64,000 bases of DNA from Yuukianura sp. NJ FZ-2021 (Eukaryota), in the NCBI GenBank assembly GCA_046563655.1, contig CM102285.1:10416001-10480000 (forward strand). Direction: 5' to 3'. The position numbers and the translations under genes are program-made. The notes below the pieces were generated by a model that was not told where the DNA came from, made no database searches, and was given only the letters and a program-made list of their open reading frames with translations. Within the stretch, counting starts at the first letter, position 1. Each line of letters begins with the position of its first letter. Shown in pieces: positions 7,493 through 60,600 of the stretch.

Positions 7493-7610
7493 GTTGCAGC
7501 ACTTCAAAAGTTTGGCACAAAACGAAATCCACGAGTGATTGTCATTGTCAGGCTTTAACCAACCGCCGCCGTCGCCGTCAGTGACACGAGGTTAGCAGCG
7601 TTAACCAAAA

Positions 7611-9766
7611 ATGGATATCGTGGAAGGAAACTTGGATGATGCAGATGACCGTGCAAGTCGCGTTGCACCATTACGCGGATTTGCACATGCTGGAGAAATA
7701 TGGCATCAAGTAATCTTTTTTAAACCAAAAATCTAAATTTTTCAAAAATCCATTTTCTATAGATGTTGATGGAGGACTTTCGCTTCATGGAAGCTGCTCG
7801 AATGGAATCTGGAGAGTACGAAGGCGCTGGACTTTCCACGGACGATTTAAAACGTGAAAAAGAAAGATATTTGACAAATTTCACAAAATTACAAGCTAAG
7901 CTTATAACCAAGATTCCCATCTTTAGCCCTGTCAAAAGTGAAGCAGCTCATGATCACAAATCCTCAAGGACTTGTAAACTTCTCTAGTTATGATCATAAC
8001 GCAGCGCCGAATGTGGTAAAATGAACACAGTGATTAATGGAAGTAATCAGAATTGGGCCAACACAAACAGTTAATGATTTTTTAGACCGAAGAGTCGGAC
8101 TACGTTATTGTGACGGATTTTAGAACGCGGCGGTTTTTGACGCGTATGTCAGTATGGGCGCCAAGGGCCGTTTTTGCGCACTGGTTACTTGGAACGCGTG
8201 CCTTCCAAATCTTCATGATTCTTGTCATCATTTCCAATTCTATTCTTATGGCCATCGACGGAGGTAAGCAACCTAAACACGACTGCTGTCAAAGGTTTAA
8301 TTTTGAGAGAAATGAAAATTCTGAAAACTTGAATTACAGCTTAAAAATTGTTTCAGAATTGGAAGCCGATGCTGCAAAAACTGCCAGACCGATTTTAGAC
8401 ACGCTTGACTTTTTCTTTTTGTCAATGTTCGTTTCTGAAATTCTGTTGAAGTGGGCTGACAGTTTTAAGCTATTTTGGAAAGACTACTGGAACATTTTTG
8501 ACTTTGTGGTTACATCAATGGTAACTTTCAAAATGTGAAAATTACGATGAAGATTTTTGAAGCATTTTTCCTGAGAGTTGTTTATGTTTAGTCTCTAGTT
8601 GCGCCTGGCCTTGACCTTTTCACTCAATACACTCAAGATGATGAACGTTTGACGACAATAATTTCAGTTGTCAAATACATTCGAATTCTCCGAATCATGC
8701 GTTCCCTCAATGTGGTCACTCGGATTGAAAAGATCATGGTGATTTGGGCTGCAATTGCTCGAACAGCAAAGTCACTCCTGTTCATAACGCTTCTCATGTT
8801 CATCTTCTTCTACATTTTTGCTGTCATTGGTCTCCAAGTTTTTGAAAAATTTACAAAGTCACATCGAACGGATCTTCTATACAAGGATGCTTTCAGTGTA
8901 AAAAGTTTTTTACAATTCAGTTCACATTCAAATTCACTTTTGTTCCATTTTGCTCAGCATCTTCCGAACGCAATGGTGACGCTGTTCCAACTTTTCACAT
9001 TGGACAAGTGGTATCCCATCATTATGAACTTGGGAGAAGGAATGGAAGACCTGACAATGCCCGTGATCTACGTTCTTTTTTGGATTCTGCTGGGCTCTTT
9101 CATTTTTCGAAACATTTTTGTTGGAGTAATGGGTAAACACTTACGAATTTGGGAAAAAGAAATTCGAAATCTGATTTAAACTTCAACTTTTTTAACTCCC
9201 AAGTAAGCAACTTCCAAAACATTCGAATGGAATTTCAAGAGGAAGAAGAAATTTCGCTAATGGATGAAGAGCGACTGGAAAATATGGAACTCAATGTTTT
9301 TGGATTACACGAAGACATGTATCTCCGCATAAAAAGTCGTACGCTAACTAAATATTCCGAGGTCATACTAAAATCTTTGACGTTTTAGTACCAAAAATGT
9401 TACTGGAAAAGAGGACGTGTTGATTGACTGGGAAGAACAAGTATTCCATGACCTTAACCTTCTCAACTTGTGTGAAAATCTGGAATTGACCCCAACGTTA
9501 TGGCCGCGCGACACATTGTTAGATTTTTAAAAAACCTTAACCAAAATATTGTATAGTGATCTCAATTTCTCCTTTTAGATTTCTATACTACATTCTTATG
9601 GAATCTTTGTCCTGGAATATCGATGAACGAGACATTTTATTTGACTATATCAGTAAGACATTAAGTTGAACCTAACCAAACGTTAAGTTAAAAGTTATAC
9701 GAGTTTCGAGGAATTTATATTGATTTTGTTTTAGACACGGCTCTTTCGATGTGCTATGATCGCTGA
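7611..9766 (+). CDS. CATSPER2: CatSper2-like sperm cation channel alpha subunit, copy A
   Basis: Multi-exon single 6TM domain. S2-S3 EILLKWADSFKLFWKDYWNIFDFVVT; S4 KYIRILRIMRSLNVVTR; S5 LLMFIFFYIFAVIG; FTKSHRTDLLYKDAFS-HLPNAMVTLFQLFTLDKWY (TxDxW filter); S6 WILLGSFIFRNIFVGVMVSNFQNIR; C-terminus DWEEQVFHDL...WPRDTLFLYYILMESLSWNIDER. These match recalled CatSper2-specific motifs (RSPRQDLEY, TLDHWY, NFQNIRKE, LDWE, WPRDSLFRY). ATG at 7611, TGA at 9764-9766. Confidence 0.9.
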
Positions 9767-10071
9767 TCTATGATAATGCGGAAGTGGGGATCCTATCTAT
9801 TAAAAAAGCAAACAGTACTCACAATTACATCACAAAATAATTATTGTGAATCACTATTCTACAACAGATTTTGTTAAAACTTTTCGAAATAAACACAAGT
9901 TTGGGAGTAAAAAAAAATTATTCTTTTCATTTTTGTTTTGGTCAATTTCTGCGCCATATAAAAATATTTTCTAGTTTTGTGTACCAAACACGTTTTTGTA
10001 CACTTGAAAAAGATATTTAACTTTTCACATGGCGTGAAGTTGCTGCAACAAAATTTTAAATTTTCAAATTT

Positions 10072-10196
10072 AAATCTCCGAATCAAATCAAATCGAATCA
10101 AATCCCCGAATCCAAATCAAATTCAAATAAGTACTATAATTCTTTGAAACTTTTTTGAGAATACTATAATTTTTTAAAACTTTTTTGAGAATACTA
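10072..10196. repeat. Short tandem repeats between the two CatSper2 copies
   Basis: Degenerate (AAATC)n run, followed by an imperfect ~30-bp tandem unit TACTATAATT..T.AAACTTTTTTGAGAA (about 2.2 copies). Confidence 0.6.
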
Positions 10197-10371
10197 CAGA
10201 AAATTGAAAATTAGGCATGTCGCTGTGGTGACTAGACTACACATAAAAGCGACGCTGATTTGGTACCAAATAAATTGAAAAATGAAGACTTCTTCCATCG
10301 ACTGACTTCTTCCACGGATAATTTGTTTCGTCACATTTTTGGCAATCAATACTTTAATAGTGTAATCAAAA

Positions 10372-12593
10372 ATGAATATCGTAGAGGGCCAGTTGGACGA
10401 CCCAGATGACAGCGCAATTCATGTTTCACCGTTGCGTGGATTTGCACATGCTGGAGAAATATGGCGTCAAGTACATTCTGAATTTTGAAGTTTGAAAAAA
10501 ATAAAATCAAAAAGTTCTAAGCTATAGTTTTTGTGGTTAGATGCTGATGGAAGATTTTCGTTTCATGGAAGCTGCTCGAATGGGATCTGGAGAGTTTTAT
10601 ACTGGCGGTGATCTCTCTACGGACGATTTAAAACGTGAGAATAATTTGTTTTAATTATAATTTTGTTTAAAATTAACAAAAATTGTTAGAATGTTTGGAT
10701 TCTTAGAGATGTCAAAGGTCAAGCAGCTCATGATCACAAATCCTCATGGATTGATAAACTTTGCCAATTACGATTATAAGACCCCTCTAACCAGTGTAAT
10801 AACCAAACCATTAATAAGGTGAAGCAATCCGCATTTTTTAAATTCAAACATTAATTTTTATTGACTTATTTAGAGTGAAGAGAAGGATTACGTTGTCGTC
10901 ACAGACTACAGAACACGTCGGTTTATGACGCGCATGTCCGTATGGCCGCCGAAGTCCGTTTTTGCTCACTGGCTACTTGGAACTCAAGCGTTTCAAACCA
11001 TAATGATTCTTGTCATCCTTTTCAATTCTTTCCTGATGGCCATCGATGGAGGTTAGAAATGCTAAACCTCGTTGCAGTCATGATATAGTTTTGGAAAAAA
11101 CGCTGGAAATTGTTTGACGTTAAAAATATTGCTTTGTAGAATTGGGAATCGAAAATTCATCAACTGCCAGGCCAATTCTAGACACGCTGGACTTCTTCTG
11201 TTTGTCAATGTTCGTTCTTGAAATTCTGTTGAAGTGGGCTGACAGTTTCAAGTTGTTTTGGAAAGACTACTGGAACGTTTTTGATTTTGTGGTTACAGCA
11301 ATGGTAACTGTTAAAAAGAGACGATTTCAGAATTTTCTGGTAGTTTTTGTTCAATCAGCTTCTTTCTTATAGTCTCTAGTTGCTCCAGCCCTGGACGTTT
11401 TGACACAATCTACCCAAGACGATGATCGCTTAACACTTATCATTGCAATTGTCAAGTACATTCGGATTTTGCGAATCATGCGTTCGCTGAACGTAGTCAC
11501 TCGAATTGAAAAGATCATGATCATTTGGGCTGCAATTGCCCGTACAGCCAAGTCGCTTCTGTTCATCACACTGCTCATGTTCATCTTCTTCTACATTTTT
11601 GCTGTCATTGGGCTACAAGTTTTCGAGAAATTTACAATTTCACATCGAACTGATCTTAAGTACAAACATGCCTTCAGCGTAAGAAGTCTTTAAAATTAAA
11701 CGAGTACTTAATCGCCGTGCTTCAATATTCTAGCATAGCCTAACTACGGATAATTTTCGTTGTTCGATTTTTCAGAATCTTCCGAACGCAATGGTAACGC
11801 TGTTCCAACTTTTCACTTTGGATAAGTGGTACCCCATGGTTATGACCCTTGGAGATGGAATGGAAGACATGACAATGGCTGTGATCTACGTTCTTTTCTG
11901 GATTCTCCTTGGTTCTTTCATTTTCCGAAATATTTTTGTGGGCGTAATGGGTAAATATTTAAAATTTTGAAGAACTTTAGAAAATTGCGATCAAGATTTC
12001 TGTTTTATTCACTCTACAGTAAGCAACTTCCAGAATATCCGAAAGGAATTTCAAGAAGAAGAGGAAGTGACGCTAAGGGATGAAGAACGTCTGGCGGAAC
12101 AGGAACTGAATGTATTTGGATTACACGAGGACATGTAAACCGTCTATATCAAAAGGTCAACCACTAAAATAAGAGGTCAAACTAACTCTTGGCAAATTTC
12201 AGGGGTAAAAATATTGATGGGAGAGAAGACGTATTGATTGATTGGGAAGAACAAGTCTTTCATGACCTTAACCTGCTGAATCTGTGTGAGAATCTGGAAT
12301 TGACTCCTTCGCTTTGGCCACGCGACACATTGTTAGATTTAGAAAAACCTTTGCAAATTCGACCCGAATTTTTACTGTGTTTAATCGCAAAATATTTCTT
12401 GCAGATTTTTGTACTACATCCTAATGGAATCCTTGTCCTGGAATATGGATGAACGAGACATTTTATTTGACCACATCAGTATGTACTCACGCTGCTGCCA
12501 AGTTTTAATGTATAACTTAACTATTTTTCTAGACATTTCTAAAATTTCGATCCCGTTTTAGACACGGCTCTTTCGATGTGCTATGATCGCTGA
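10372..12593 (+). CDS. CATSPER2: CatSper2-like sperm cation channel alpha subunit, copy B (tandem paralog)
   Basis: Starts MNIVEGQLDDPDDSAIHVSPLRGFAHAGEIWRQ. It has the same exon architecture and intron phases as copy A, the same S4 and TLDKW pore, NFQNIRKE, WPRDTL, and the identical end TALSMCYDR* (TGA 12591-12593). I saw no frameshift or premature stop in the hand-spliced model. Confidence 0.9.
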
Positions 12594-13322
12594 CGTTCCA
12601 GAGCGATAGCGGATTGCTGCCGAGTTAAGGCTGAACTGGATATGTGATGGCACAAAACAAAATAAGCATAACCTATTTAACCAGTCATGTGTCACTACTA
12701 CATTTGATGGTTAATTAAAAGTTTTAATTTAAAACTTTCAAATCCTTGCCTAATTTCAAAATTCCTGTTGTTGACTCTTACAAACTCATCGTTATAAGAG
12801 CCCTTCATCATCAAAGTATTGGCGTCATAAAAGCAGCGGGATTTTGTAGGGTGTTTTCCGCTTTGAAATATTTTTGGCGCGCAGCGCGCAGCCCGGCCTT
12901 TCATCGCCGATCTTTCTTCTCTTTTGATTTTTTTGATTTTGCAAATCGTTTCGCGTGGTTTTGCAAACTTGAGTTTAATTCTTTTCGTCAGGTGCCATTC
13001 TGCTTAGTTTTTCATTACTATTTGGGTACGGCTTTCAGAACAGTTTCGCTCACACATCGTCGATCGATTGATAACGTAATCATTCCTTGTCTTGGGCTTT
13101 CTCTTCGTTTAGGCCTTGATTTAGGACAAAGGTATCTTTAATAATAATCGTTTTATTCAACTAAGAAACGAAAAAGAATGAACTTCCGTCAATAAGCAAG
13201 GTTGGCAAATAGGGAATTGGTATGGGATTACGATTAACAATAGTATGCATCAATTCTAGGGCTCGGACTACGGGTACTTCTCGTTAATCAAGTGGAGTCG
13301 GCCAGAACGCCAGAAGGAAGAT

Positions 13323-15253
13323 ATGGAATACGGTAACCCGGTGATGATCACGTCCAATATGAACTTTGCCTTAGGAGGGGATGTCGTGAAAGCAGGTCCA
13401 AATAGTAATTCGTTTGTACGGGATATCAGCATCATAACGGCGTTCATGGCCACCAATTATGCCATTCACAAAGCTGCCCCTCATGTTCGGCCAGCTATTT
13501 CACTTATTGCTCGTCGGGTAAGTTTGGAATTGCAATCTGGGACTCCCAGACTGGGAGAGCTACGCTAGTCAAGTAAATGAGACGTTGTTACGGTGTTTAG
13601 TTAACGTTAAAGTACTGTTGTTTCTTGTAGTCTGGACCGTATTTGAACCAGCTAAGCGAAACGGCACGCGGTGTTGCAGACGCTGTTTCCCGAATTCGAA
13701 GCCTACTTCGCAGAAGAAATGAACACGAAACATTCGTCCGATTTGTTGCAAGGAATCTTCCATCGTTTATATTTGATCCAGCACCTCGAATATTTGTTCT
13801 ACTGCAAGGAGTTTCATGTGCTTCCGCTAACGAAATATTAAGAGATAGACAAATTCGCCCGGCCCTTAGTGAATTAGAAGAATTTAATGATGAGGGAATC
13901 ATCGTGGCTTATGCAAAGACGTCTGACAGCGAAAGTGAAGCTGTGGAACCGACAGATGCACTTCCGGATTTTGGATTCGTGGATACTTGGCCTAACACCA
14001 ACCTAACTATGAAATTCGATCCATGGTAAAACGTATCCCTTATGAACTTACTACTATCGACCTTTATTCACATCATGCATAACCAGTTTAGTTAGTTTGG
14101 ATAGTATACAATATTCATCGTATTGTTCTTATTTCATAGGACTGGTGCTGGGGGTTGCTCCACTCCGATGGGATATGCCTCGCCTGTCCATCAATGGCTT
14201 GCCACAAGTGTGAATCCACCAGCCCAATTTACTAATGAAGAATCAGCCGTTCTGGAGGCGAATGCAACAAAAATTGCTACACTGGAAGCCGAGCTTATCA
14301 AAATGAAAGCAATGGTTGAAACGATTCTTCAAAGTCAAGCGAATTTTCGGGATTATCCACCCGCACCTCAGCCGATCCCAATAACAACTCAGCAAGAGCA
14401 TTTGAATCAACCATCAGCAGCACCGCCCCCACCTCCGCCTCCTCCTCCTCCTCCAGCTCCAATTTTTCATTCAGCCCTCAACGGTCAAAAAATCATCAAG
14501 CTGAAAACGAAAACCGAGCTAGAATCTAACGCACTCACTCCTCCAGTTCCTACTGAAACAACTAAGGCTGGCCCGTTATCGATGTCTGATGTCTTGAAAG
14601 GATTGAGTAACGTGAAGTTGAAACCTGTTGAACGGTAAATGTAACACGTAGACGTTTACTATCTTTGAATTTGTACAAACTCGCTAACATTGTTGTCTAT
14701 TTTTAATGCCAAAGATCCCCAGGGGGGACCCCGTTCAAACCGACTCGAATCTCAAATGAGACTGATCCCGCTGCAATGATTGCTGCCGCCCTCAAGAAAC
14801 GGTTTGCCAGTATCCAATCTCCGGCCTTATCGAATGTGGACGAGGAAGATAGTTTCTCCGACAAGGAAAATCAACCATTGAGTGGCTCAGACTCTTTTAG
14901 CAAAAGCCCTTCTTTTTTCCAATTCGGGAAATCTGGGAATCGTAAGAAGAAGTCCAGTGCTGCAGTGCTTGATTCGCCATTAGGTCTGAAACGTTCCAGT
15001 TCGGATCAGAAGCTGAATACATCCTTTCCGAAAAAGAGAAAGTCAACTGGTTCTCCGGCAGAGCAATCTCCAACACCATTGGTGAGATTCAATAATTCTC
15101 ATCCTTTTTTTTTGCTTGCCGTACTGCAACTTATAATAAAAACGCTCACTTTGACAATTTCAGTTTGGTCAACATTTGCTGAAACGGAGAGTTACTAACT
15201 CGCTGCAGAAGAAGCTGGGACGATTGAGTCTGGGCGAGGAAACAAACAACTAA
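13323..15253 (+). CDS. MTFR1: Mitochondrial fission regulator (MTFR1/MTFR2 family)
   Basis: Exons 13323-13517, 13631-14025, 14140-14634, 14715-15081 and 15164-15253. Family motifs: FVRFVARNLP, coiled coil KIATLEAELIKMKAMVETI, polyproline tract, SMSDVLKGLSNVKLKPVERSPGGTP, DPAAMIAAALKKRFA, FGQHLLK. The start codon choice is less certain. Confidence 0.85.
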
Positions 15254-51600: not shown

Positions 51601-54600
51601 CAAACACACTCAAGGAGATCAAAAGACTGGCATGGTCCAACTTACTCCTTGCCACATGCTCTTCATGGATCAACTTGAGTAAATAATGGTTTAGAGCTAC
51701 ACTGGAACCTTCTGGGAAAGCTCGGAGCTTTTTCTTGTTGATGAAAGCTCTGGAAGCGACCAGGATTTGCTTTTCCTATTGCTCAAAACGCTTCTGCTCC
51801 TCTGCCCAATTTTATAAATTAACTCAAAGCTCTCATTTCCGTTGTCGAAAATTAACTCAACTAGTATTACATACTAAACTATTTCACTATTTGAAGAGCT
51901 TGTTGATTTTTGTTGATTATTTAAACTTTGAAATTATTTCCGCTTGGAAAGGTAATACTTTAAAGGTAAACTTTCGTTAGGTTTAGCACAGCTTAACCAA
52001 AACCTAGCAGAGGGCAAAGCCCTTTTCAAATTTAAATTGAACAATAGGTTCTATTTGAACACGAAACTCTGCTGTGGACATCAATATTTGTTGGTGTTGC
52101 TCGAGTTTCACAAGCTTGTTCTTTTTGTTTGCCTTTTGTGTTAACCCCAATTTTAAACTTAAAGAGAAAGTCTATTCATTAGGGAAAGGAAATTGATGGA
52201 GATTGTCCAACTTTGAATCAACTGGAATTAAAAGAAAAGGTGAAAATTGAATTCCAAAATTAAGTTTTACCTCATAAAGTTAGCTTCTTTTCAACTCAAA
52301 CTTTCTCTAACAATTTTTTTTACTTCGAAGTAAAAAAAAAGTTTAGGCTATGTCATTTTAGCCTCAAATAGCAGTTTGCTTTTGTTCAATGCTTTAGGAG
52401 TTTGGTGGACGTGCGTGTTGAGGAATCGAATGGTCTACTTTTATGTTTTTCAAAATGGGCAACAGACTCCTCCAAAACTCCCTTGGATGCGTGTAGAGTT
52501 TCAGCCTTGATCTTCCTAAAGCCTTTGAACTGAAGATTGTACTTTTAATGATTTGTAATTTTAAGGGATTTTGTTCATTAACTTTCTCCAAAATCTAGAA
52601 AACGGGAGCCGTAAAATTAAATTCTAAAACTCAGGAAAACTTTCTCCTGAAAAGTCTATAAGCTCATTTCGTGGCTTCCTCCCTGTTATATTTTCCACCA
52701 GAAGTAATATTCGCATAAGCTAATTAAAGCGGCAGAAGGTGTGGCTTTTCAGATACCCTTTTTGAAAATTTGGTTTTCTAAAATTATGAAACCGGAATTT
52801 CCTACATCAAAAAGAAAGTTCACCATTACAAAAGACCTGCTTTCCCAGAATAGATAATGCTCAAACTAACTTTCTCTAAAAATAAGTGTGCCTTTTGTAT
52901 ATTTTTGTGTAAAATCGGAATTTGAAATCATTTCACGAGTTTGTATTCAAATTCTTGCTTTCTCTCCGGAAGTTTTAATTAAACATTTTTACGAACCAAA
53001 TGAATCATAATGCAAATTTGATCTGAAACGTAAATTTCACAATAAAGCAATCCTATTCCGATTTTCTAATCATTTTGCTCTGGAAAAACATTCACAAAAC
53101 TGTAAGTTACATTATGAAAAAACTTTTATAATAATTGGTAAAATAAATAAATGTATAATTATTAGATTATAAATATAAATAATACATTAAAGAAGCTGAT
53201 ACGGTTCCGTTTTCGCGTTTTTCTTAAAGTAAAAGTCCTATTATTTCTGGCGCAGCTTTCACTTTATTGTTTCTGCTTTTCTTTTGCCTTTTGTTGGATC
53301 ATGCATGCTTTCTGCGTGAGTTTTTGAAGTTGTTCAAGTAGGATAAAGACGAAAGGCCCAATCACGAGCCTTAAAAACAAAACAAGTCAAGGGCCCTTCA
53401 ACCCTTCTCGTCTTCCTTTTCTGAAGTCAAGTTCTCTTGACATGCTTTTAGGAGAAAGTCAAGGACCAGAGAACGGAAGATCGAAACTTTAGGATGTCAA
53501 AACGTACTAAATTTTGCAGTCAAAGGACAAAGTTTCAGGAAACTTAGCAGTTTCCATAGTCGACAGTAGTGGAAGCCAAATGTGGTAGTGACGTTTTCCT
53601 TTTTTTTGTTCTTATAGCTATCATTGAAGATGGGTATCACTGGAGGAATCCATATCACAATGCAATCCATGCCGCTGATGTCACCCAGGCCATGCACTGC
53701 TTTCTCCAGGAAAGTCGAATTCTGGAGAAGTTACAACCGCTTGAGATTTTTTCTGCCATTGTGGCAGCTGTTACTCATGACCTAGATCATCCTGGAGTCA
53801 ATCAACCTTTCCTTGTGGCAACTTCGAATCATTTGGTAGCTCTGTACAAGGTAAATCAATTGTCAAATTTATCTAACATTATTTACTATACTAGATTTTC
53901 ACTAGACTTTCTCCAGCTTTCTACATACGAACTATCAAAAATATCCGGCACTCTTGTGAGAGAAAACTCACATGCACTTGAAAAACTAAAAATGTGGCAA
54001 ATAATTAAGTGAAAGTTGGCATTTACGTAAATTCATCCAAAAATTTGCCTAACAAGCACCACTGTGCTGGGGCTGAACACGTAATTTCTTCATTAGCTTT
54101 CACTTTTCGCTTGACGTTTTTGAAATGTTAATTACCCAAAACCTACGTAAGATTTGACGGAATTTGGGCGGATTTGTTCAAAAGATGACGTCATTACCAC
54201 CTCCGTTGTTGTGTGCAAAAGGTGATTTTTGCGTAAATGGGTAAAAGGTGTAGTTCATTCTAGGGGAGAAAGGAATCGATGAGTAGTTTCTCCCTCCGGT
54301 TTTTTGGCATAGTAGTCGTAAGTTCATTGCCTCCATGGCTCTGTTGAACTAGTTTAGGACTTTTTCACGACTTTACCAAAAACCTAGAACTCTACCGTAA
54401 AACCTAGAACCTCCCTCCTGACACATTTCCATAGAGCTATTCTTTACTCCTCGGAGCTTGGGCTGTGGGGATTGTAGAGTCGGGGCTTCTAGGTGATTTG
54501 CAAGGCGTGACTGGAGCCCATTTGGGTCGTAAAGCCTATTACCTCACCACCATCTAGGACTTGGGCTGGCGGGACTTAAGGTCTTCAAGATTAGTTTAAT

Positions 54601-57600
54601 GTACCAAGAAGATCAAGTATCAGGGAGGCTGCTGTGGAAGAAGGCATGCTAGCACGGAGCGCCAAAGGAAGGACATTAAAAGTTCAAAGTAGATTTGTCG
54701 TACTGCCGGAAGTTCAGAACGAAATTTTAAATTCCAACACCTCTTCGCAACTTCACAGAAACCAACAGCACCAAAATTTTCATAATTTCTTGGCAAACAA
54801 ACTGAAAGAAAAAATCCTTTTCAAAAATGTAATTTTAAAAATCAAGAATGGTTACCACCTTGACTTTCCCTTTTCAAAATAAAAGCCACACCATTTTCTA
54901 ATCTCTTTCTACTATCACAAAAAGCATACAACGTCTTCTCTTATTACAATTTTTTAAAACTAGAGTCAGTATAGTACAGTTTTCCTTCGAAAAAGAAAAA
55001 TCACGCAGAATTTTATGAATAGGGAAGGCGGATATTATGGGTGAAAGTCAGAAGGAAGCCTATTGTTCCCATTCCCCAATCCAAAAACTTTGGGCACGTG
55101 GAGTGGATTCCAATGACGTAATTCCTGCTCTCCTTAGCTCGCTTGCCAAAAAAAGTGAAAGTTTCAACTTCCTCATGAGTCCATAGCCCTCTGCAGTAAG
55201 TAGTGACTAACGGATCAAACGAAACCTACGCTAACAAAAATTGCACCCGTCCCCTCTCTCCCACCACCACTTCCTCGTTCCGGTAGCATAATTTCCTACA
55301 CTTCCATGGGCCCGTGGAATTGGAAAAGGAACGGAGATAAAGGTGAAGGAACTTTCTTTTTCCTAGGGAAACAAAACTCGTGACTTTCACTTTTTCAAAA
55401 AACAAACTTACCTTTCTCCTTTGAAAATTAAAAACGGAGAGATGAAGGTGAAGTTTTTAAATCACTGTAGAAAAAACACGATTCACAGGCAGAGATTGGG
55501 CGATTGGGGATTTGAGGAATTCGGATGATTCGGAGATGAAGATTCATGTTAAATTTTTTATTACTTTTAGTAACTGTTTGTTTTATTTGTATTTTTAGAA
55601 TTCTTCTGTGCTTGAAAATCATCACTGGCGATCAGCTATGGGGTGTTTGAATGAGAGCGGAGTCAGTGAGGTTCTGGGGCGTGAGAACGTTGCCCTCGTT
55701 GAAGAACAAATAAAGTCTCTAGTTTTGGCAACGGATATTACGCGTCAACAGGAGTTTCTGACGCGTCTGAAGGTAATGAATCATCTTGTAGCTTCGTTGT
55801 CGTTTTCTCCCAACGACATTTCATTTCCTCAGTTTTCTAGATTTTTTTCTCCAAAAAATTAATTTCCTAACAGTAAACAAATGGACTTTTTAAAAGGAAA
55901 TAGCAGTTATAAATTACACGTTAGAAATGATCGATGTTGTCATCCAGGCTTTTCCTCTCTAAAAACGTTTTTTTTTTTGCACTTCTGAATACTGGTCTAG
56001 TTTATACATAACATGACCTAATGCTACTCACCTAACCTAACCGCTACGTTGTTATTATTAGTGTGAATGCTTTCACTAAATGTTGGAAAGACGTGGGTTT
56101 TCAGAATTCAGAAACGTGAAAGCATCTTTGACATTTCTTTAATCCTTCAAGGGTGTTTCCCCCTTGCTTCGTCCGCTGCTTAAGTGAAAATGTGTTTGAT
56201 GACCTTTTGCATTGCAGGCGTACGTTGACACGGATACGTTGGACATGAATGACCCTGGTGTCCGTCACTTTGTTCTTCAAATTGCTCTTAAGTGTGCAGA
56301 CATCTGTAATCCGTGTCGACCGTGGGATATTTCTAGGAAATGGAGCATGAAAGTCTGTGAAGAGTTCTTTCGGCAAGGTGACTACGAGCGTCAACTCCAA
56401 CTGCCTGTCACGCCTGTTTGTGACAGATATGCTACTTCCGTCCCCAAAATACAGACTGGTGAGTTCCGTTTTAACAAAACGATACTTGTTCAGAACAAAG
56501 GGAACAATGTCTCCTAGAGCACAATTTTTGAACATCGTCTCCAGGAAATAAGTTCGAAGTCAATTGAAACGTACAAAATACGGAGAAAGTTGGACTTTCT
56601 CAGCTGAGGACAAAAAAAGCCAGAGTTGAATAGAAGCAGAAGCATAGTTCAACCTGTTTTGGAAATTCATGAACGTTGCAGTTGGGCGATGAGCAATACA
56701 TTTCATCTGATTGAATTTTAATCACATTATGCTGAGTTGATCATTTAATTTGTTTAATGAGGATCTTTAGGAAAAATGAAATCTTTGGAGAAATGTTTCG
56801 GAAAAGCTTGTGATTTCATTTCCTAAAGTAAAAAAAATCTCCAAAAAACCTACACTCATGTTCTTAAACTTAGATGTTTTTTTATTCTAACTAAAAAGTA
56901 AAGTTATGCCTTTGCACTTTGTAAATTCGTAATTTGCAAATGGGAAATTTTCATTTTCTTAATTCCTTTCTAACTCTGAAAGTCTATGCTATGGATGGAT
57001 GGAGTGAAAGATTATTGTGAAAAAAAGAAGAAAGAAAAACTTTTTGACTTTCACTGCTCCAAAAAGACGAAAACTTTTTTTTTTGTTAAAATTATTCTTG
57101 TCTTACGGAAAAGAGAAAGTATAATGTTTCACGATTGAGTTTTTTTTTGTGTTGAATTTTGACCCACTTGATTACCAAGTTTCGAAAAGAAAGAGAAAGG
57201 AAAAAGAAGAAGTTTCTTTGCTTTCCCAATTTGAAAGTTTTTGTTTGTTTTGTTTCAGGCTTTCTAAAATTTGTAGTTCGGCCTCTATTTGAAGAGTGGC
57301 ATCGCATGATGGACACACCGCTGTCGACAGTTATGATTGGCAACTTGAATTCGAACGACATCAAGTGGAACCAACTTCTGGAAGCTGAGCAAAATCAAGA
57401 AGCACTCACTGCCGAAATGGAAGCAGAAGAATCAGAATTAATTCGAAACATGATCATTGAGAATCCGGATTTGATTAATACAAGACCATCGGCACAGCGA
57501 TCCCGAGAGCCCAGTGAATCTGATCGTGAAAGTCGTTCTGTACGCTTCGAACCTACAATAATAACGGCCAGTGACTCTGAAGAGACTTCAGAAGCTGATG

Positions 57601-60600
57601 ATACAATGTACATGCCCAAAATTACTAGAGAGCCTCGCAATACAAATGAGTTTCTCAATATTCCAAGGCCGGATGGTCGGAGGCACTCAATTGCTACAGG
57701 GTTAATGGGTGACAATATGCAAATCCCAGCTCAGCTACTTCAAATGGCCAGTGGACTCAGCAGTGGCAGTGGCAGCTTGCTCAGTATTTCAGACATGGTC
57801 AGTGGCGAGACGTCGACGGGGCGCTTGGTTGGCCGAACGACAATTCGCAGAGAAAGTTTACCAGCGGGGCCTGGAGCACGCGGAGCCGCATTGTCGTCTA
57901 AAACGATTTTGCATTTACAAAAAATTAGTAGCGGACGACTACTGGGTGAAGCTGGGTCATCTACGTCTCCAGCCGTGTCACCACTTGAAGGTGACGACAC
58001 AGTGCCACCTTCTCCAAATCGTGTTTTAACTGAGAAAAGCAGTTGTTCCAGTGCTTCAACGGATGAGATTCTTGACTTTACGTTTAGTCTTCCAGAACCG
58101 TCGAGTCGCTCATCAGGGAGTCCACGTCGTCTCACTGAAACAACAGACTTTGACGAGCTATGTCCGGGCACTAGTATTTTGTCCATGTCAAATCGTGTTG
58201 CACACATAACTCTCCAGCATGGCGCTGATTTAGAAGATCAGCGTCGTCATCTCATACGCCAACAAACATGTCCTGTCGTCAGTGTAAATGCTGATGGAAC
58301 CTTGAGCCAGAGATTTGAGCGTCCGAGATTTCTATCTGCTGCGGCAGCGATTAGTCCAACGGCAGTCGCATCTTCGTCAATAATTACACAGCATCGTCAG
58401 AAAAACAAGAGTCCGGAAAGTGGTGGTGAAGGGGATGGAGCTGGACTGTTGTCGTCAGCTCGTGGAAGTCGTGGAAGCAGCAGCGAGGCGCTGAAGTGTG
58501 AAGTTGTAAGTTGACAAAACTGAAATGCTGTAGTTGTAGATTTAATTTTCCAAAGTTAAACTAAAAGTTGAGTTGTTTTGTTTTACTATGTAGATTTCAG
58601 AAGAGGCGGATCGTCAAAGCGGAAGTTCAGCTGAAGCAAGTCCGCTTGAAATATTTGTACAACAGTTTCCTCCATCCGATGACAATGACGGTTCAGCACC
58701 GCGAAGAGGCAGTGAAAGTTTCCTCAGTGAAAGTGAAGTTCGGAGCATCAGTGCTAGCAATAATAATAGGTCCACGAGCTCACTCAATATTGATCCAGCA
58801 TCCTCTCCTGATGGAACTCCGGATTTGAAGCAACTTCTTCCTTTCGATGGAGTTCCAGCTCAAGAAACTGGTGGGTCAGCTCAGGTCAAAGAGGAAGAAA
58901 CTTCGGCTGGAGAGGAGAGACCAAGATCAAATTTTAGTGTCAGTTGTCAAAGTGGATTTGGACTGGAAGAAAGTGAATTTAGACCCTCCGACTCTCTTCC
59001 TTTGTCGTCATCACCTCAATTAGATCTGAAAGCAGCTAAGCCGAGCAGCAGTCGAGAGAAAGTTGACCCCGCGGCACCCGAAATGAAATCAAATCCAGTC
59101 AACACGACTTCAGGCAGCATCGTAGAAAGTCAAGTTCCAGCAGTCTCTCCATCATATACTACCTCAAACGTATCCATTTCCACACAGACTGACTTATCCA
59201 GTTTTGAAAAGGAGAACATTGATCCAAGAAGTTGTGGCTCAGGTACAGCTAGGGCTCCGCCAAGTGGTGGCTCAGTTACCACAGTTTCCACCGCATCCAC
59301 CTCAATATCCAACCTCAATACGCCCACTCAACTTCCACAAGCTTCTGGTTCAAGTGGCCACATCCCAGTAACGAATGTCCCCTCTTCCACCTCTACTTCA
59401 AACGCCAGTCGCTTAGCAACCATCCTTATGTGGCGGAATAATCGGTTATGGAAGAGTCTTACGGAAGAGGAACATGAAGAGCATCCAACGTCGTCATTGG
59501 ATCTGGATCCAGAAGATGCTCATCATCACTTACACCACCATCACGCCCACGGTGGTGGTCAACTGCCTCTTCCGGACTATTTTGAGCGATGGGACGTTCT
59601 CATGTCACAACAAAGTCATCAAGTAAGTTTATCCTAAGCATCTTCATTTGCCCGGAAGCTTGTAAGCGAGTCAGCATCTTCAAAAAATTTCCAGACTTTC
59701 ACTCAAAGGATCTAAAAATATAAAAATCTGAGACCCCGGAATTGGGAAACTCTTGGATAATGGGAATAGGGAGAATACAATTCAATTTTGGGAAAGTTGG
59801 TTTGAACCGTACCATGCATTCGGTTTTCCTACGCAGTAATTGAAAGCTTCAAGGAAAAAATCCATGAACATGGAATATGGAGAGCATTCAAGTGAAATTT
59901 CCATTTTCTCTACTACTTTCTCCAGCTTCCCTTGTGTGCCAATTTCAGTAGACCAGAAGCACCACCACTGAGATTCAAAGCTTAAACTTTCTCCTCAAAT
60001 TCATATTTTTTTCAAAATCCAGGAAGATGCGAGGAACCAATTCAGCAACTCACCTGTACAAAATCCAATCAAATCAAAATACAAAATATTAATTTTTTTT
60101 TACTACAAAGCACTTGAGGTTCCCATCTAAGCTAAAAATGGCAATTTCCCGGAGAGATCCCACGTCCAATTTCTTTTTTCATATCCAAATCTGGCCTAAA
60201 GTGCTGCCTTCCCTGCTCTAGGTACTTTCACTTATTAGATTCGTTGTGAAACGTCTGCCTCGATGAGTTGAGTGAAGTCTTTGAAGTGGATACAAAATAT
60301 TCTAGATTTTGTTAAGGACCAACTTCAATCAGTACGTTGAGAGGCAGATTGAAATTAGGGCGGATTCGTATTTGAATTTATGATTAGCCAGAGTGCTTGA
60401 CTTTAACTCATTGAATTTGAAGGGAGTTGTGGGCGGACGGCTTCAGATGAGGCGTGGCTCGGCTCCTACGGCGTCTCCAGCTCTGGGTTGTCGCGGTGCT
60501 TTGGATCGGCGTTCGGATCCTACGCAGTATCACTCCAGTAGCTGCGTCTCTTCGAACTTTAACTTTGCAAGTCTCTTTGGAAGCCTTCCGTTGTCGGAGA

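Follow-up and report, generated by a model that had tools for sequence, protein, structure and literature searches.

A tandem pair of intact CatSper2-type channel genes in a probable springtail genome

The sperm cation channel CatSper, which has four pore-forming subunits including CatSper2, is required for male fertility in mammals, and its occurrence over the animal tree is oddly scattered. CatSper is commonly quoted as lost in arthropods, because it was lost in Drosophila. Romero and Nishigaki (2019) describe the distribution of CatSper in arthropods as heterogeneous (PMC6660944). For springtails, Cai and Clapham (2008; PMC2572835) reported a CatSper4-like EST from Onychiurus arcticus, and a PLoS Biology paper of 2026 has CatSper1 of Orchesella cincta in its Table 1, the species having been picked for the possession of at least the four pore-forming subunits (PMC13674862). 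A review of insect VGIC mentions CatSper just for opossum kidney cells and springtails just for the collophore (PMC11148248). In NCBI, CatSper2 is annotated by name for Folsomia candida and Orchesella cincta, and two homologues from Allacma fusca are present there without a name. The view of the first-pass annotation, that the channel is little characterised in this lineage, is therefore overstated, since springtail CatSper genes are already present in NCBI and in papers.

The window analysed here is the whole stretch of 64 kb of DNA. Two homologous neighbouring genes, termed g1 and g2, occupy positions 7611–12593 of its plus strand, from the ATG of g1 at 7611 to the TGA of g2 ending at 12593, and a tblastn search of the entire window with springtail CatSper2 proteins matched only these two loci. 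The first CatSper2 paralogue, g1 (7611..9766), was modelled by coordinates as 11 exons encoding 483 aa (7611-7709, 7763-7853, 7927-8015, 8086-8263, 8357-8520, 8592-8897, 8958-9132, 9204-9318, 9389-9517, 9579-9652, and 9735-9766). The second, g2 (10372..12593), encodes 484 aa and has the same structure of 11 exons (10372-10470, 10541-10634, 10707-10795, 10874-11051, 11140-11303, 11373-11678, 11776-11950, 12020-12134, 12203-12331, 12405-12478, and 12562-12593). All 10 introns of each gene are of the GT-AG type and their positions match between the copies; introns 1–9 are 53–97 nt long, and intron 10 has 82 or 83 nt. No internal stops are present in either spliced model, and g1 and g2 are two intact genes, as the first-pass annotation had proposed.

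A model with 10 exons, in which exon 10 is read to the next stop, was dropped. A 39-nt block comprising the last acceptor and terminal exon 11 (9728..9766 in g1 and 12555..12593 in g2, both on the plus strand) is 100% identical between the copies in blastn and lies downstream of both genes, while conserved GT donors expose exon 11 and restore the C-terminal end of the family; in g1, the splice from 9652 to exon 11 recovers the typical end. The genes are separated by a spacer of 605 nt (9767..10371), in which blastn detected nothing significantly similar to the sequence preceding g1 and no ORF of note was listed.

The search with the Folsomia query includes 46 rows with E-values from 2e-245 to 2e-81. 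Among the 37 that are named, 32 are designated CatSper2, CatSper2-like, or CATSPER2, four are called "unnamed protein product", and one "Ion transport protein". Aligned end to end with Folsomia CatSper2, g1 shows 50.5% identity over 461 aligned residues, and the E-values of the window proteins against it are 1e-145 or lower, a likeness far beyond chance. In a 24-row LG+G4 tree, g1 and g2 are sisters with 100/100 support and are nested in a 9-row clade, also supported at 100/100, in which the only named members are Collembola, accompanied by two unnamed rows; a 44-row quick tree agrees, with an 11-row clade at an SH-aLRT of 100. The smaller tree is the 44-row set minus 20 rows, namely, the four on long branches (chytrid, P0041, P0046, and Styela), two BacNav rows, several fragments and unnamed rows, and some of the rows from echinoderms, cnidarians, and amphioxus. 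The springtail CatSper2 clade sits on a long branch of 1.2–2.1 changes per column in both trees. A PDE exon located in the window is 87% identical to that of Orchesella, 88% to that of Folsomia, and 87% to that of Allacma, versus 80% for the best named insect. The gene tree and the PDE exon point to a springtail, or a hexapod very close to springtails, as the probable host, in agreement with its first-pass description as a non-dipteran arthropod. CatSper2 occurs in two copies in all three springtail lineages for which genome-level data were considered here, namely, the window, Allacma, and Folsomia; in Folsomia the two lie on different scaffolds, and in Allacma on different contigs.

Both g1 and g2 encode single-repeat 6TM Ion_trans proteins. 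Five of the eight exon translations scanned scored above the curated cut-off of PF00520 (Ion_trans), jointly covering profile positions 2–231 of 241, and the three misses were two C-terminal pieces and the 60-aa S1 exon. Within this match, exon 6 of g1 encodes the S4 charge ladder K235, R238, R241, R244 (K-x-x-R-x-x-R-x-x-R) at 8673..8702, counted from the exon start at 8592, and exon 6 of g2 encodes identical aligned residues at 11454..11483. The selectivity filter T-L-D-K-W is found in exon 7, at 8997..9011 in g1 and at the aligned positions 11815..11829 in g2. Both copies conform to the T-x-D-x-W pattern, with TLDKW aligning to TLDHW of human and mouse CatSper2, and 34 of the 40 CatSper2 homologues with 400 aa or more carry F-[TS]-x-D-x-[WY]. 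A C-terminal DWE...WPRD module was located by alignment in exon 9 (9426..9515 in g1 and 12240..12329 in g2). The first-pass annotation had noted an Arg-repeat S4, TLDKW, and DWE...WPRD, and translations and alignments place all three, on the plus strand, in both copies. Its description of the last as CatSper2-specific is borne out among CatSper2 proteins of invertebrates, chordates, and chytrids, where 32 of the 40 homologues with 400 aa or more have W-x-R-D. A CatSper2-type cytoplasmic N-terminal region and DWE...WPRD could be aligned in all six sequences compared, a chytrid homologue among them. The exon carrying the module matched nothing in PDB at E-values up to 10, mouse CatSper2 included, so the module is not recognisably common to the mammalian CatSper2 chains in PDB.

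It is likely that g1 and g2 are two functional tandem CatSper2 orthologues of a springtail or very close hexapod relative, each contributing one subunit of the sperm CatSper channel. Each gene encodes one 6TM subunit with a voltage sensor of four basic residues in S4, a pore loop of the Ca-channel T-x-D-x-W type, and cytoplasmic N- and C-terminal regions like those of CatSper2. By analogy with the solved structures from mouse and human, either product would fill the one place for CatSper2 in the CatSper1–4 heterotetramer of the sperm flagellum, and the products of g1 and g2 would be alternative occupants of this place. The channel, if it behaves like its mammalian counterparts, would admit Ca2+ upon depolarisation or alkalinisation and thereby control flagellar beating. 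Expression of the two genes in sperm, association of their products with other subunits, and the ion selectivity are inferences.

A peculiar feature of the pair is the residue following the filter Asp, which is Lys in g1 and g2 and in none of the 34 other CatSper2 filters, where it is His (18), Gln (15), or Asn (1). Judging from this substitution, pore behaviour may differ from that of known CatSper. One could speculate, as a rather unlikely extension, that CatSper2 was repeatedly duplicated in springtails, that the copies alternate in the CatSper2 position to yield two versions of the sperm channel, and that Lys modifies the pore in the window proteins. If true, a permanently charged Lys, fixed in both copies, would shift pore electrostatics or abolish a titratable His, and it may be adaptive for sperm that stay immotile in the deposited spermatophore until their later activation.

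The uniqueness of Lys (0/34) and the duplication of CatSper2 in three springtail lineages (the window, Allacma, and Folsomia) would also suit a different and unlikely proposal: that the proteins are CatSper2 paralogues outside the canonical CatSper1–4, which form homo- or hetero-tetramers of their own or have a non-sperm role, with selectivity altered by Lys. The same possibility is raised in PMC6660944, where a butterfly with just two pore-forming subunits is described. However, Orchesella cincta is among the species chosen for at least CatSper1–4 in PMC13674862, and PMC2572835 reports a CatSper4-like EST from a springtail, so other subunits do exist in the springtail group.

The identity between the two copies at the amino acid level is 82.6% in the window, 62% in Folsomia, and 49% in Allacma. 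Divergence between g1 and g2 is lowest over S4–S5 and the C-terminal module, and dS of 0.72 and dN of 0.10 correspond to a dN/dS of 0.138. The combination of this dS and a dN/dS of about 0.14 means that both copies have been kept; both are under purifying selection, and the duplication is old. Tandem duplicates frequently lose a copy, a pseudogene copy is located near human CATSPER2, and the terminal branch of g2 is longer than that of g1 (0.16–0.20 vs. 0.08 in the two trees), all of which would be in line with only one working copy, the other being redundant, on the way to a pseudogene, or unexpressed. Such a scenario appears improbable: both frames are open over 11 exons with every splice site intact, and a dS of 0.72 indicates a long time since duplication, yet the dN/dS is 0.138, whereas neutral drift of one copy for most of this time should have resulted in a much higher pairwise value.

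Variation in DNA contigs assembled from four public runs likewise speaks against the decay of one copy. Only five of the best-supported 40 of 369 substitutions are exonic, though exons account for 56% of the gene-bearing stretch compared, and these five, of which one lies in g2, are all synonymous third-position changes; a listed variant at 9739 in exon 11 of g1 is synonymous in the frame of this exon. None of the best-supported 12 of 30 indels in these contigs is exonic. Three of the four runs share one sample, which may be the source of the window assembly, and the contigs of runs X2, X3, and X5 leave parts of this stretch uncovered. Contigs of run X5, which stems from another study and another coded organism, cover g1 and g2 separately (records 28, 30, and 31). 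The source sample is very polymorphic, with many contigs just 90–99% like the window.

The assignment of the two genes to CatSper2 rather than to CatSper1/3/4, Cav/Nav repeats, or bacterial Nav is well supported by the ranking of PDB scores. A profile built from the nearest relatives and the window exons matched the mouse CatSper2 chain 7eeb_B with 296 bits in one stretch, at profile positions 30–391, while bacterial Nav scored 111 bits, CatSper3 92–93 bits, and single Cav repeats no more than 97 bits in the two alignments printed; CatSper1 and CatSper4 were absent from the best 60 PDB rows listed, the last of which had 81 bits. The pore exon alone retrieved only five PDB sequences at E-values up to 0.001, namely, human CatSper2 (44 bits), mouse CatSper2 (43 bits), CatSper3 (27 and 26 bits), and one BacNav (24 bits). 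The first-pass classification as CatSper2-type agrees with these scores and with the names of the relatives, almost all CatSper2.

That g1 and g2 represent another one-repeat voltage-gated cation channel (BacNav-like, EukCat-like, or another CatSper subunit) merely resembling CatSper2 is very improbable and has been largely refuted. Whole-sequence scores of four-repeat Cav channels do exceed the CatSper2 score in PDB searches, because they are summed over four repeats, but the best single Cav repeat printed reaches 97 bits compared to 296 bits for CatSper2, in a stretch that includes the pre-S1 N-terminus. In the 24-row tree, which like the larger one took in CatSper2 homologues and bacterial Nav only, the BacNav rows fall outside all others at 100/100; with the profile, CatSper3 scores 92 and BacNav 111, and the WPRD module is common to 32 of 40 CatSper2 homologues. 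Finally, although the polymorphism of the source sample might suggest an assembly artefact in which two haplotypes or a collapsed repeat were placed side by side, this is hardly credible, since the loci are just 73.9% identical over 2268 nt (blastn) with a dS of 0.72, far beyond allelic difference, and a run from another study covers both copies separately.

The finding of two CatSper2 genes is real but fairly ordinary and leaves the overall picture unchanged, because springtail CatSper has already been named in NCBI and used in at least two papers. The tandem CatSper2 pair itself and the Lys after the filter Asp are modestly new. With the window, the few arthropods listed as retaining a pore subunit are joined by a further springtail-type genome, and a tandem pair in which selection has maintained both copies helps annotation and studies of where hexapods lost or kept CatSper. 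Channel specialists could take an interest in the repeated duplication of subunit 2 among springtails and in the unique Lys by the filter Asp.

Compared with known systems, the locus recalls the case of Heliconius melpomene, another arthropod with CatSper pore subunits although Drosophila has none, but that butterfly has a reduced set of two different pore-forming subunits (PMC6660944), whereas the window holds one subunit in duplicate and belongs to a group for which all four have been reported. Mammalian CatSper2 (mouse 7eeb_B, human 9ubw_B) likewise consists of one 6TM repeat and matches the window proteins from the pre-S1 N-terminus to S6, at 296 bits for mouse, with a close pore loop and S6, the T-L-D-x-W-Y filter context, and four basic S4 residues. 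It differs in the His after the filter Asp (mouse and human), in the lack of a PDB counterpart, at E-values up to 10, of the DWE...WPRD exon, and, for mouse, in a length of 588 aa versus 483–484 aa. CatSper2 proteins of marine invertebrates, namely, those of sea urchin, sea cucumber, amphioxus, corals, annelids, Priapulus, and the barnacle Pollicipes, are full-length homologues (E-values of 1e-99 to 1e-125) that have the filter and the WPRD tail in common with the window proteins, although their identity to the Folsomia query is 32–41% and the springtail clade is long-branched. The springtail CatSper2 proteins of Folsomia candida (P0003/P0037), Orchesella cincta (P0002), and Allacma fusca (P0008/P0016) are 44–51% identical to those of the window and have TLDQW, TLDHW, or TLDHY filters, never TLDKW, but they belong to the same length class and the same 100/100 clade, share the N-terminal LMEDF...AAR and C-terminal WPRD modules, and, in Folsomia and Allacma, are also present in two copies.

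Searching the 64 kb window with springtail CatSper2 proteins (tblastn) revealed two loci, both on the + strand, at about 7.76–9.66 kb and 10.54–12.46 kb, and no further CatSper2 loci. Exon limits were set by inspection of the DNA and then verified by coordinates, resulting in two adjoining genes on the + strand: g1 (7611–9766, 11 exons, 483 aa) and g2 (10372–12593, 11 exons, 484 aa). By blastn, the regions downstream of the two copies share a perfectly conserved block of 39 nt (100% identity; 9728–9766 and 12555–12593), with a GT donor 82–83 nt upstream of it in both genes. A model with 10 exons per gene was dropped, since including this block as the eleventh exon gives C-terminal ends like those of the relatives. 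All ten introns are of the GT-AG type in each gene, the first nine being 53–97 nt and the tenth 82–83 nt long, intron positions are equal in the two copies, and no internal stops were found in either frame. The first-pass annotation had claimed two intact genes at 7611–12593, and the open frames and intact introns bear this out, with an exact match of the limits: 7611 is the first ATG of g1, and 12593 is the end of the last stop of g2. Just downstream of g2, the gene at 13631–15198 (+) matches the Pfam family Mito_fiss_reg (mitochondrial fission regulator; E 4e-11) and includes a proline-rich stretch.

A Pfam scan detected the Ion_trans domain (PF00520) above the cut-off in five of eight exon translations; those without a match to it were two C-terminal pieces and the 60-aa S1 exon. 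In both copies the S4 segment reads K-x-x-R-x-x-R-x-x-R, and the selectivity filter in the pore loop is T-L-D-K-W, located on the + strand at 8997–9011 in g1 and at 11815–11829 in g2. The D-W-E ... W-P-R-D module is encoded by exon 9, with the same placement in the two genes. Thus, the six-transmembrane Ion_trans match, the arginine-repeat S4, the TLDKW filter, and the DWE...WPRD tail were all confirmed in both copies.

For family assignment, a profile (A1) built from the nearest relatives and the window exons was searched against the PDB. Four-repeat Cav channels had the top whole-sequence scores, but this lead is misleading, because these scores sum over four repeats. Mouse CatSper2 (7eeb_B) scored 296 bits in a single stretch covering profile positions 30–391, from the pre-S1 N-terminus to past S6, and human CatSper2 (a 281-aa chain) scored 234 bits, against 111 bits for bacterial Nav, 97 for the best single Cav repeat printed, and 92–93 for CatSper3. 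CatSper1 and CatSper4 were absent among the best 60 PDB matches listed, the last of which had 81 bits. The 58-aa pore exon alone matched five PDB sequences at E ≤ 0.001: CatSper2 (44 and 43 bits), CatSper3 (27 and 26 bits), and BacNav (24 bits). In the protein collection, 46 rows had E values from 2e-245 to 2e-81, and 32 of the 37 named ones are called CatSper2, CatSper2-like, or CATSPER2; these 32 come from springtails, echinoderms, hemichordates, amphioxus, a tunicate, cnidarians, annelids, a nemertean, Priapulus, and the barnacle Pollicipes. Of 40 homologues with a length of 400 aa or more, 32 have a W-x-R-D tail and 34 have an F-[TS]-x-D-x-[WY] filter. As judged from the score ranking, the named relatives, and the shared terminal modules, g1 and g2 are members of the CatSper2 family, and the earlier family call was correct. 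A protein of the chytrid fungus Globomyces pollinis-pini (P0005) matches at 25% identity and shows every part of the CatSper2 layout, the WPRD tail among them; it appeared among animal sequences in a quick tree, but its placement is unreliable because of its very long branch.

In a careful 24-row tree, g1 and g2 are sisters (100/100 support) within a nine-row clade (100/100) comprising Folsomia, Orchesella, Allacma, and two unnamed rows, with Allacma nearest to the pair at weak support (86/77). The quick tree of 44 rows agrees, recovering an 11-row clade with an SH-aLRT of 100. A second gene, encoding a phosphodiesterase (PDE; 53560–59637, +), carries PDEase_I in two exons and has PDE7-like proteins as its nearest named relatives; its C-terminal open frame (57156–58514 and 58594–59637) is very long, rich in Ser, and of low complexity. 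A 76-aa exon of this gene, at 53.6 kb, shows 87% identity to Orchesella, 88% to Folsomia, and 87% to Allacma, and at most 80% to any of the named insects among the 120 matches listed. Two independent genes, CatSper2 and PDE, therefore point to Collembola, in line with the non-dipteran arthropod proposed at first pass, and the equal distance of the PDE exon to three springtail lineages is consistent with a host from a fourth one or from a very closely related entognath group.

The two copies are 82.6% identical at the protein level and 73.9% identical at the DNA level over 2268 nt including introns. Nei–Gojobori counts gave a dS of 0.72, a dN of 0.10, and a dN/dS of 0.138; judged by these dS and dN/dS values, the copies are old and both are under purifying selection. 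Divergence is least in codons 241–300 (the S4–S5 region) and 421–480 (the C-terminal module), and greatest in codons 61–180, from the N-terminal region to S2. Contigs of public DNA sequencing runs matching 7500–12700 are in accord with this; runs X1, X2, and X3 represent one sample, which may be the window's own, while X5 comes from a second study and a second organism. Exons account for 56% of this stretch, yet contain only five of the 40 best-supported substitutions (369 in total), and all five are synonymous third-position changes; no exonic indels occur among the best-supported 12 of 30. An assembly artefact was rejected, since X5 contigs cover g1 and g2 separately at about 95–96% likeness to the window (records 28, 30, and 31), and so the pair exists outside the assembly. 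One 890-nt X5 contig links position 9184 to 8325 ("goes back 860") and has a depth of 23, versus about 3–9 for neighbouring contigs. This may reflect circularisation of the contig or, in that organism, an additional or locally tandem copy of the S2–S6 part of g1. The X1–X3 sample is highly polymorphic, with 369 substitution sites over 5.2 kb and many contigs 90–99% like the window, which suggests pooled or very heterozygous material.

Additional copies occur in other springtails. Allacma fusca has two CatSper2 homologues (P0008 and P0016), 49% identical to one another, and Folsomia has a second locus (P0037) on a different scaffold from P0003, whose 210 aa are 62% identical to P0003. In the trees, g1 pairs with g2 and P0008 with P0016, each as a monophyletic group. 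Folsomia's copies fall apart, one of them grouping with Orchesella (98–99 support), which points to an older duplication in that lineage. Taken together, the three pairs suggest repeated CatSper2 duplication within springtails.

The first-pass view of this lineage as poorly characterised for CatSper was overstated. CatSper2 has already been named by NCBI in Folsomia candida and Orchesella cincta, a CatSper4-like EST was reported from the springtail Onychiurus arcticus (Cai and Clapham 2008, PMC2572835), and Orchesella cincta CatSper1 is listed in Table 1 of a 2026 PLoS Biology paper whose species choice required at least the four pore-forming CatSper subunits (PMC13674862). Romero and Nishigaki (2019, PMC6660944) describe a heterogeneous arthropod pattern, with Drosophila lacking CatSper, and the older view of CatSper loss in arthropods was repeated by Cooper and Phadnis (2017, PMC5553355). 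No paper pairing "CatSper" with "Collembola" was found in the literature search. Modestly new are a tandem pair of CatSper2 genes maintained by selection in another springtail-type genome and the lysine right after the filter aspartate in both copies.

In the solved CatSper complexes, CatSper1–4 contribute one quarter of the pore each. By analogy, the product of g1 or g2 would fill the CatSper2 quarter, each copy would bring a working voltage sensor and the filter aspartate, and the channel would let Ca2+ into the sperm flagellum. The residue following this aspartate is Lys in g1 and g2 and in none of the 34 other CatSper2 filters, with His in 18, Gln in 15, and Asn in one. In the pore-exon alignment, the filter surroundings match those of human and mouse CatSper2, apart from His in place of the window's Lys. 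A review (PMC10120453) argues that, in channels with one or four repeats, the residue at this "HFS+1" position tunes selectivity between Ca and Na. The filter of Folsomia P0003 is TLDHY, with Tyr replacing the filter Trp.
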